A stretch of 64,000 nt of DNA from Hydrolagus colliei. Its lineage: Eukaryota. The DNA lies in the NCBI GenBank assembly GCA_035084275.1, contig CM068743.1:51398001-51462000 (forward strand), in the 5' to 3' direction. The notes beneath the pieces are model-generated. The model made no database searches. It saw only the letters and a program-made list of their open reading frames with translations, and was not told where the DNA came from. A program made the translations under genes and the position numbers. Each line of letters opens with the position of its first letter. Positions within the stretch are counted from its first letter, which is position 1. Positions 61,420 through 62,682 of this stretch are shown in pieces.

Positions 61420-61586
61420 TCATCATTGGTGTATTTCCTTATCCGGGGCCCACAGGCAGTCACCCCATTGGCTGACTGCATCACATGAACAACTAACTTT
61501 GTACACTTGACAGCAAGTAGGAGGGTTCTTATGGAACAGAAAAACGACAACGCGAGAAAAATTAGTATTTTGCACTTCAGAAATTA
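61420..61586 (+). promoter_or_regulatory. hoxa4 promoter / conserved 5' leader
   Basis: Two CATTGG boxes, CACATG E-box, CTTGACAGCAAGTAGGAGGG and CAGAAATTAATG, all typical of Hox4 paralogues. Confidence 0.75.
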
Positions 61587-61587
61587 A
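61531..61587 (+). other. Upstream ORF (18 aa, MEQKNDNARKISILHFRN) whose TAA overlaps the hoxa4 ATG
   Basis: ATG at 61531-61533 is open to TAA at 61585-61587; the final A is the first base of the hoxa4 ATG (TAATG). Translation is not shown. Confidence 0.55.
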
Positions 61588-62004
61588 TGACCATGAGTTC
61601 GTTTTTGATAAACTCCAACTACGTTGAGCCAAAATTTCCACCTTGTGAGGAATATTCTCAAAATAACTACATACCAAGCCAGTCTCCAGAATACTACGAG
61701 CGGCCGCGGGACACTGGATTCCATCATGAGGCACTATACCCACAATCAAACTACCCAGAGCCGACCTACAGCTTCAACAATGTCCAAGGCACTGGCAACC
61801 GAGACATGTCGCAAAGAGGTCATGTGCAGTCGCAGGCTAGTCTCCAAAATCACACACCGAGACAGAATCAGCTTTGTGAAGTGGTCCCAGTAGCCACACC
61901 AGCTTTGTGTAGCCAGAACGCGAAAATCCCCACTATCCAGAAAGGTACTCCCAGCAAAGAGCCTATAGTTTACCCGTGGATGAAGAAAATTCACGTTACC
62001 AACG
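61587..62004 (+). CDS. hoxa4: Homeobox protein HoxA4, exon 1
   Basis: MTMSSFLINSNYVEPKFPPCEEYSQ...KEPIVYPWMKKIHV; donor G|GTAAGT at 62004/62005. Confidence 0.96.
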
Positions 62005-62090
62005 GTAAGTAACTAAAAGCTGACTGAAGCAATTCAAAATCACTCGAAAGCGGATGTGCGGAACCCTTTTCTGTAACTAGCCCTTTCATG

Positions 62091-62150
62091 AGATTTACGA
62101 TCACCTAACTGTTAGGTCGGTAATTACAGCGCCCATAAATTTTATTGCCC
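62091..62150 (+). promoter_or_regulatory. HB-1 element in the hoxa4 intron
   Basis: GATTTACGA...GGTAATTAC...CCCATAAATTTTATTGC, the characteristic Hox4 intronic homeodomain/Cdx site cluster. Confidence 0.8.
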
Positions 62151-62356
62151 TGGATCTTGCTCCTGGCCATGTGTCTTTGATGCTTTTCTAACCTAAAAAC
62201 CCAGGGCCATTTTATTGCAGTAGATTGTTCTCCGTTGTCAGTACCCATTGAAAGAAAAAGTCTTGTCTTTTATAACCTTCATTCACGTGCATCTAATCCC
62301 ATTGTCAGATTCGTGTCTGTATCTGTACTTATGCTTGGTTACTTTTTTTTGTTCAG

Positions 62357-62682
62357 TGAACCCAAATTACACTGGAGGGGAGCCCAAACGGTCTCGAACT
62401 GCTTACACCAGACAGCAAGTCTTAGAGCTGGAGAAGGAGTTCCATTTTAACCGTTACCTAACCAGGCGTCGACGCATTGAGATTGCACATACTCTTTGCC
62501 TGTCTGAACGCCAGGTGAAGATCTGGTTTCAGAACAGAAGGATGAAATGGAAGAAAGATCACAAACTACCTAACACTAAGATGCGTTCTGCTAGCTCATC
62601 ATCTTCTACCAGCCAGCAATCACAAGTATCCTCTCATGGCCCTCAGCCAGATGGTTCAACACCAAATTCATCAAGTCTATAG
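62357..62682 (+). CDS. hoxa4: Homeobox protein HoxA4, exon 2 (homeodomain)
   Basis: Acceptor TTCAG| at 62356; [78 protein letters not shown]... Spliced protein 247 aa. Confidence 0.97.

Follow-up and report, generated by a model that had tools for sequence, protein, structure and literature searches.

The upstream ATG (uATG) that precedes hoxa4 in the chimaera Hydrolagus colliei is real and ancient, and it lies within a nucleotide-constrained block of promoter, leader and splice acceptor. On balance, we favor the explanation that the upstream open reading frame (uORF) it opens, which sits in an ancient Hox4 block of ~150 nt, is an ordinary inhibitory uORF in proximal transcripts, and that the TAATG overlap between the uORF stop and the hoxa4 start likely follows from conservation of the nucleotides and has no role of its own. 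The viral-style coupling or micropeptide that an earlier sequence-only reading of this locus had proposed does not hold up.

The window, the whole 64,000-nt stretch that was analyzed, covers the HoxA cluster with the run A11-A10-A7-A6-A5-A4. The gene is assigned to hoxa4 because it is the final Hox gene in this run and its exon 1 best matches Callorhinchus milii HoxA4 (135 of 139 residues, as against 130–132 for the 14 shark and ray proteins among the 15 compared). The 247 codons of the coding sequence equal the length of chondrichthyan HoxA4 records. The features are listed below in window positions, and negative numbers are counted from the main ATG of the gene concerned.

61435–61446, plus strand: 12-nt block TTCCTTATCCGG, which we take to be an Ets-like site; identical in all four Hox4 promoters, at -151 to -157
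61465–61471, minus strand: CCAAT box (CCATTGG on the plus strand); in all four paralogues, about -122
61481–61487, plus strand: E-box-like TCACATG; in all four paralogues, about -106, including an ATG at -102
61497–61522, plus strand: predicted zone of proximal transcription starts, placed solely by analogy with human HOXB4 5' RACE
61531–61587, plus strand: uORF of 18 codons; uATG context weak to middling, C at -3 and G at +4
61579–61580, plus strand: likely 3' splice acceptor AG (-8/-7) following a run rich in pyrimidines; predicted exon start AAATTAATG
61587, plus strand: first hoxa4 ATG, in the poor context UUAAUGA, T at -3
61593, plus strand: second in-frame hoxa4 ATG, A at -3 (span of both ATGs 61587–61595)
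61587–62682, plus strand: hoxa4 coding sequence of 247 codons; exon 1 61587–62004, exon 2 62357–62682, GT-AG intron

Re-reading of the window sequence reproduced the reported uORF exactly. Its 18 sense codons run from the ATG at 61531–61533 to a TAA at 61585–61587, the final A of which is the first base of the hoxa4 ATG at 61587–61589 (TAATG, 61585–61589). A second in-frame stop (TGA) immediately follows the TAA, and the main frame begins M-T-M. The upstream bases were shuffled 20,000 times at lengths of 60 nt and 90 nt with TTAATG kept fixed. An ATG-started frame ending on that TAA arose in 17% (60 nt) to 20% (90 nt) of the shuffles, so a single overlap is unremarkable and carries little weight alone; such frames of at least 18 codons arose in 0.7–2.6%. 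It is the retention of the uATG in all four Hox4 paralogues, rather than the one overlap, that is above chance.

The paralogous loci were found by searching the genome with the N-terminal 26 residues of hoxa4. Four loci were obtained and assigned by alignment score as A4 (the window), C4 (L002), D4 (L003) and B4 (L004). A uATG is present at the homologous site in all four, always with a pyrimidine at -3, in keeping with the claim of an ancient leader shared by Hox4 paralogues. The A4 uATG (-56) opens 18 codons that end in the stop/start overlap. The C4 uATG (-53), which differs from A4 by 3 nt, opens 17 codons that end in the same TAATG overlap, in line with what the sequence-only reading had said of human HOXC4. 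The D4 uATG (-58) opens 11 codons, and the frame stops 22 nt before the main ATG; the B4 uATG (-64) opens 29 codons that enter the coding sequence out of frame. The TAATG overlap is therefore confined to two of the four paralogues, A4 and C4, and TTAA is retained in D4 and B4 though it is not the uORF stop there.

In B4 the first ATG is replaced by AAG (L004:1498–1506) and only the second remains, which, unless it is an assembly error, is natural support for the sufficiency of the second methionine. The idea that initiation is biased towards the second methionine of hoxa4 is plausible, given T at -3 of the first ATG, A at -3 of the second, and a B4 gene that has only the second.

Upstream of the block, 7 of 36 columns are identical in all four paralogues; immediately ahead of the uORF the figure is 21 of 43, within the uORF 32 of 67 and in the coding sequence 35 of 54, which indicates that the conservation starts before the uATG and not at it. 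Between A4 and C4, the uORF peptides have 13 of 17 aligned residues in common. The 17 uORF codons differ by one synonymous and four non-synonymous changes, compared with eight synonymous and four non-synonymous changes in the 21 coding codons 3–23, both being small numbers.

Orthologous leaders were read indirectly, from annotated proteins whose N-termini extend into the leader in the main frame. All 27 sarcopterygian HoxC4 records with a leader (coelacanth, lungfish, amphibians, turtles, lizards and birds) imply the 53-nt spacing of the chimaera C4, and 17 of the 18 positions of the main-frame translation are invariant. In HoxC4 the first base of the main frame is the third base of the uORF codon, and eight of uORF codons 2–11 allow a synonymous change that would be visible in the protein. 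None of these eight wobble sites has changed in any of the 27 records, and the invariance continues upstream of the uATG. A selected peptide should drift at its wobble sites, which argues that the nucleotides are conserved and not the peptide. The annotated 33-residue extension of these HoxC4 proteins (P0005 and 26 others) has its first methionine at the ATG contained in the E-box motif of the promoter and is therefore likely an annotation artefact.

The 116 HoxD4-type records examined comprise 44 unextended and 72 extended proteins, 2 of the latter with other 5' ends and 70 showing the leader. Of these 70, 54 have the uATG site in frame, 7 have it in the stop/start frame and 9 in the third frame; these counts are not frequencies, because only stop-free main frames show in such records and the query favored the in-frame class, and the two out-of-frame classes show the ATG only indirectly. 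The in-frame class consists of teleosts, including zebrafish and medaka, and bichir, and the third-frame class includes camelids, an anole and two killifish-group fishes. The D4 site thus occurs in all three frames, which indicates that D4 does not hold it to any one of them. The in-frame uATG of HoxD4a in teleosts and bichir (P0016 and 53 others) predicts an N-terminal extension of 19–23 residues. The uATG spacings recur by lineage: 57 in bichir and a catfish, 58 in this genome and two camelids, and 60 in most teleosts. Some one-base differences in spacing fall within runs of G/A, where assembly errors are possible. Among the protein matches no HoxA4 record carries an N-terminal extension; because a stop interrupts the main frame in the chimaera A4 leader, such records are of little use for judging A4 orthologues.

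The upstream half of the block resembles a known promoter. The core promoter of human HOXB4 spans -153 to -55 and contains HXRE-1 and an E-box, and 5' RACE places its starts 65–90 bp above the ATG, as described in PMC2193192. As in that promoter, CCAAT-like and E-box motifs lie 100–125 nt above the ATG in the chimaera. By position, the CCAAT box at 61465–61471 is likely the equivalent of HXRE-1, and TCACATG at 61481–61487 likely that of HXRE-2, a USF site. The proximal 5' region is likewise described as extremely conserved in a study of Hoxa promoter E-boxes (Akirtava et al., 10.1101/2022.02.10.479744). However, both systems account for the upstream half of the block and not for the uATG, and the motifs here are predicted. 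Just before the uATG, at about -70, AGTAGGAGGG is common to all four paralogues. If the HOXB4 start offsets are transferred to hoxa4, the cap would lie 10–35 nt above the uATG, which would then be included in the transcript.

Published work on Hox leaders provides the closest parallel. Ivanov et al. (2022, PMC8892498) report in their main text a Hoxc4 uORF that is conserved from mammals to fish and that was scored as translated in mouse and as part of the leader defined by CAGE, and Hox uORFs of this class repress 1.2–2.5-fold and respond to eIF1/eIF5; the stringency response is shown for Hoxa1, a9 and a11. The published Hoxc4 uORF is probably the paralogue of the hoxa4 uORF. The hoxa4 uORF shares with the class a short AUG-started frame in suboptimal context (C at -3, G at +4) and a main AUG in UUAAUGA, the context listed for human HOXA4 and HOXC4 (Dataset S1, PMC8892498). 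A short leader and deep conservation are probable further likenesses, the uATG being kept in the four paralogues of this genome and, by indirect reading, in C4 and D4 orthologues. Unlike the class members, Hoxa4 is absent from the 13 uORF genes given in that main text, and Hoxc4 is not among the reporters described there. The same main text makes no mention of the stop/start overlap or of its sharing among A4, B4, C4 and D4, and among the papers searched, that main text included, we found none on uATG sharing across Hox4 paralogues or on the overlap.

An inhibitory uORF would work as follows. Transcripts from the proximal CCAAT/E-box promoter would start 10–35 nt above the uATG. Part of the scanning ribosomes would initiate there, terminate at the overlap and mostly leave, which would lower HoxA4 output, and the remainder would leak past and initiate either at the first hoxa4 ATG, which is weak, or at the second, which is stronger. 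HoxA4 output would then follow eIF1/eIF5 stringency, as for Hoxa1, a9 and a11. The uORF would be missing from transcripts that are spliced to the AG at -8 or that have their start below it, and the TAA would likely be kept because it belongs to the context of the exon start and weak start codon, AG followed by AAATTAATG, and not because it functions as a stop. This explanation is favored by a uATG retained in all four paralogues while the frame outcomes differ, by a TTAA kept where it is no stop, and by the variable D4 frames, the fixed C4 wobble sites and the missing synonymous excess between A4 and C4. It is also favored by the conserved, repressive Hox uORFs, Hoxc4 among them, in the published text, and by HOXB4 start offsets that would include the uATG. 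However, regarding the overlap as a by-product does not predict the 53-nt spacing of C4 in 27 of 27 records and in this genome, nor the exact 3-nt difference between A4 and C4, although a frame kept in one of the three paralogue comparisons equals the chance expectation.

The inhibitory uORF may also lie outside the main A4 mRNA. The leader of mouse Hoxa4 is given as 15 nt (Akirtava et al., 10.1101/2022.02.10.479744), that of human HOXA4 is 47 nt in RefSeq (coding sequence from base 48), a mapped start of human HOXD4 lies 21 bp above its ATG, and Hoxa4 is off the list of Ivanov et al. A transcription start downstream of the uATG is what the sequence-only reading had itself named as evidence against its proposal, and mouse Hoxa4 is reported to have one. 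These leaders suit a second explanation, possible though we tend to doubt it, in which this DNA serves as promoter and, in transcripts from distal starts, as the last part of an intron, so that the uORF is outside the main mRNA and its ATG and TAA survive as DNA and splice motifs. The AG at -8/-7 is present in A4, B4 and D4, where it is preceded by 9–11 pyrimidines in 12, and C4 of this genome reads GG (L002:1493–1494) in its place. Thirteen annotated isoforms (gene models) have a foreign 5' end; the switch falls exactly ahead of K-L-M in 10 of them and one residue before that point in 3. From the AG, the pyrimidine run and these switch points, AG followed by AAATTAATG is likely a splice acceptor for distal-promoter transcripts, and mouse Hoxd4 P2 transcripts are described as splicing into the coding exon (PMC3185001). 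At the acceptor site, Q-K-L stands in the sarcopterygian C4 records, consistent with CAG.

The nucleotide-level invariance also agrees with a DNA function, and the uATG lies inside TTTATG, which resembles a CDX2 site, in C4, D4 and B4. We considered such a site as the reason for the uATG; it would fit these three better than A4, which reads CTTATG and so keeps the ATG without the full TTTAT motif. Against a location outside the mRNA stand also the HOXB4 starts, which lie above the site, and the Hoxc4 element, presumably orthologous, that is reported in a CAGE leader and translated in mouse.

Two further explanations give the overlap itself a role. In the broader one, which we consider unlikely, a single uATG that predates the gnathostome Hox cluster duplications persisted in all Hox4 leaders, and small indels changed its frame to give paralogue-specific, dose-setting geometries (stop/start in A4 and C4, a short uORF in D4, an overlapping one in B4, an in-frame start in teleost D4a), and the fixed UAAUG of C4 and A4 would be a cellular reinitiation site free of the viral TURBS. 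In the narrower one, the coupling that the sequence-only reading had put forward, termination-reinitiation at the overlapping ATG ties HoxA4 and HoxC4 output to the uORF; this we regard as quite unlikely. The exact UAAUG geometry in A4 and C4, a C4 spacing unchanged from chimaera to birds, cellular stop/start cases (GAD and SLAMF1) and some viral cases without motif 1 speak for it. The likeness to TURBS systems (influenza B M1/BM2 and caliciviruses) is in this geometry, in which the stop codon overlaps the start or lies no more than about 20 nt from it. However, influenza B and calicivirus reinitiation is described as requiring a UGGGA motif within a stem (PMC5972666, PMC10275272). This motif 1 (TGGGA) is absent from the 120 nt above the ATG in all four paralogues, the hoxa4 leader has no motif 2/2* stem, and the upstream frame is 18 codons instead of a long functional ORF. 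The leaders fold no better than dinucleotide shuffles (200 each), with MFE z-scores of +0.4 for A4 and +0.8, +2.0 and +0.8 for the others, and no stable structure was found in them. Reinitiation after a short uORF needs a minimum spacer for reloading of the initiator tRNA, and in hoxa4 the spacer measures -1 nt for the first ATG and 5 nt for the second. In addition, the overlapped ATG is in a poor context, D4 and B4 are without the geometry, so that the uORF frame is kept in two of four paralogues, and about one shuffle in five gives an overlap.

That the leader encodes a functional micropeptide, or that the 19–23 residue extension of teleost HoxD4a is functional, is highly improbable despite the likeness of the A4 and C4 peptides and the 54 in-frame D4a records, because synonymous changes are not in excess, all three frames occur over the same nucleotides, the C4 wobble sites are as fixed as the others, and this genome's D4 and camelid D4 encode near-identical main-frame residues with the uATG site out of frame.

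If the inhibitory uORF is translated, cartilaginous-fish hoxa4 would join those Hox genes that are controlled by start-codon stringency, and the published Hoxc4 uORF would be dated to before the Hox cluster duplications. The four natural frame variants provide a ready comparative reporter series for uORF geometry versus output. The annotated N-terminal extensions of HoxC4 and HoxD4a call for caution, as they may read out conserved promoter and leader and not protein.

Within the hoxa4 intron, a CCATAAA-TTTTATTG motif pair (window 62133–62147) is also found in the B4 intron and resembles what is presumably the homeodomain element HB-1 of Hox4 introns. Short uORFs occur above other HoxA genes of the window as well: A10 (-49), A7 (-102 and -74), A6 (-72) and A5 (-107). 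The ATGs of hoxa6 (window 45568) and hoxa5 (48554) carry C at -3 and lack G at +4, which matches the published mammalian contexts.
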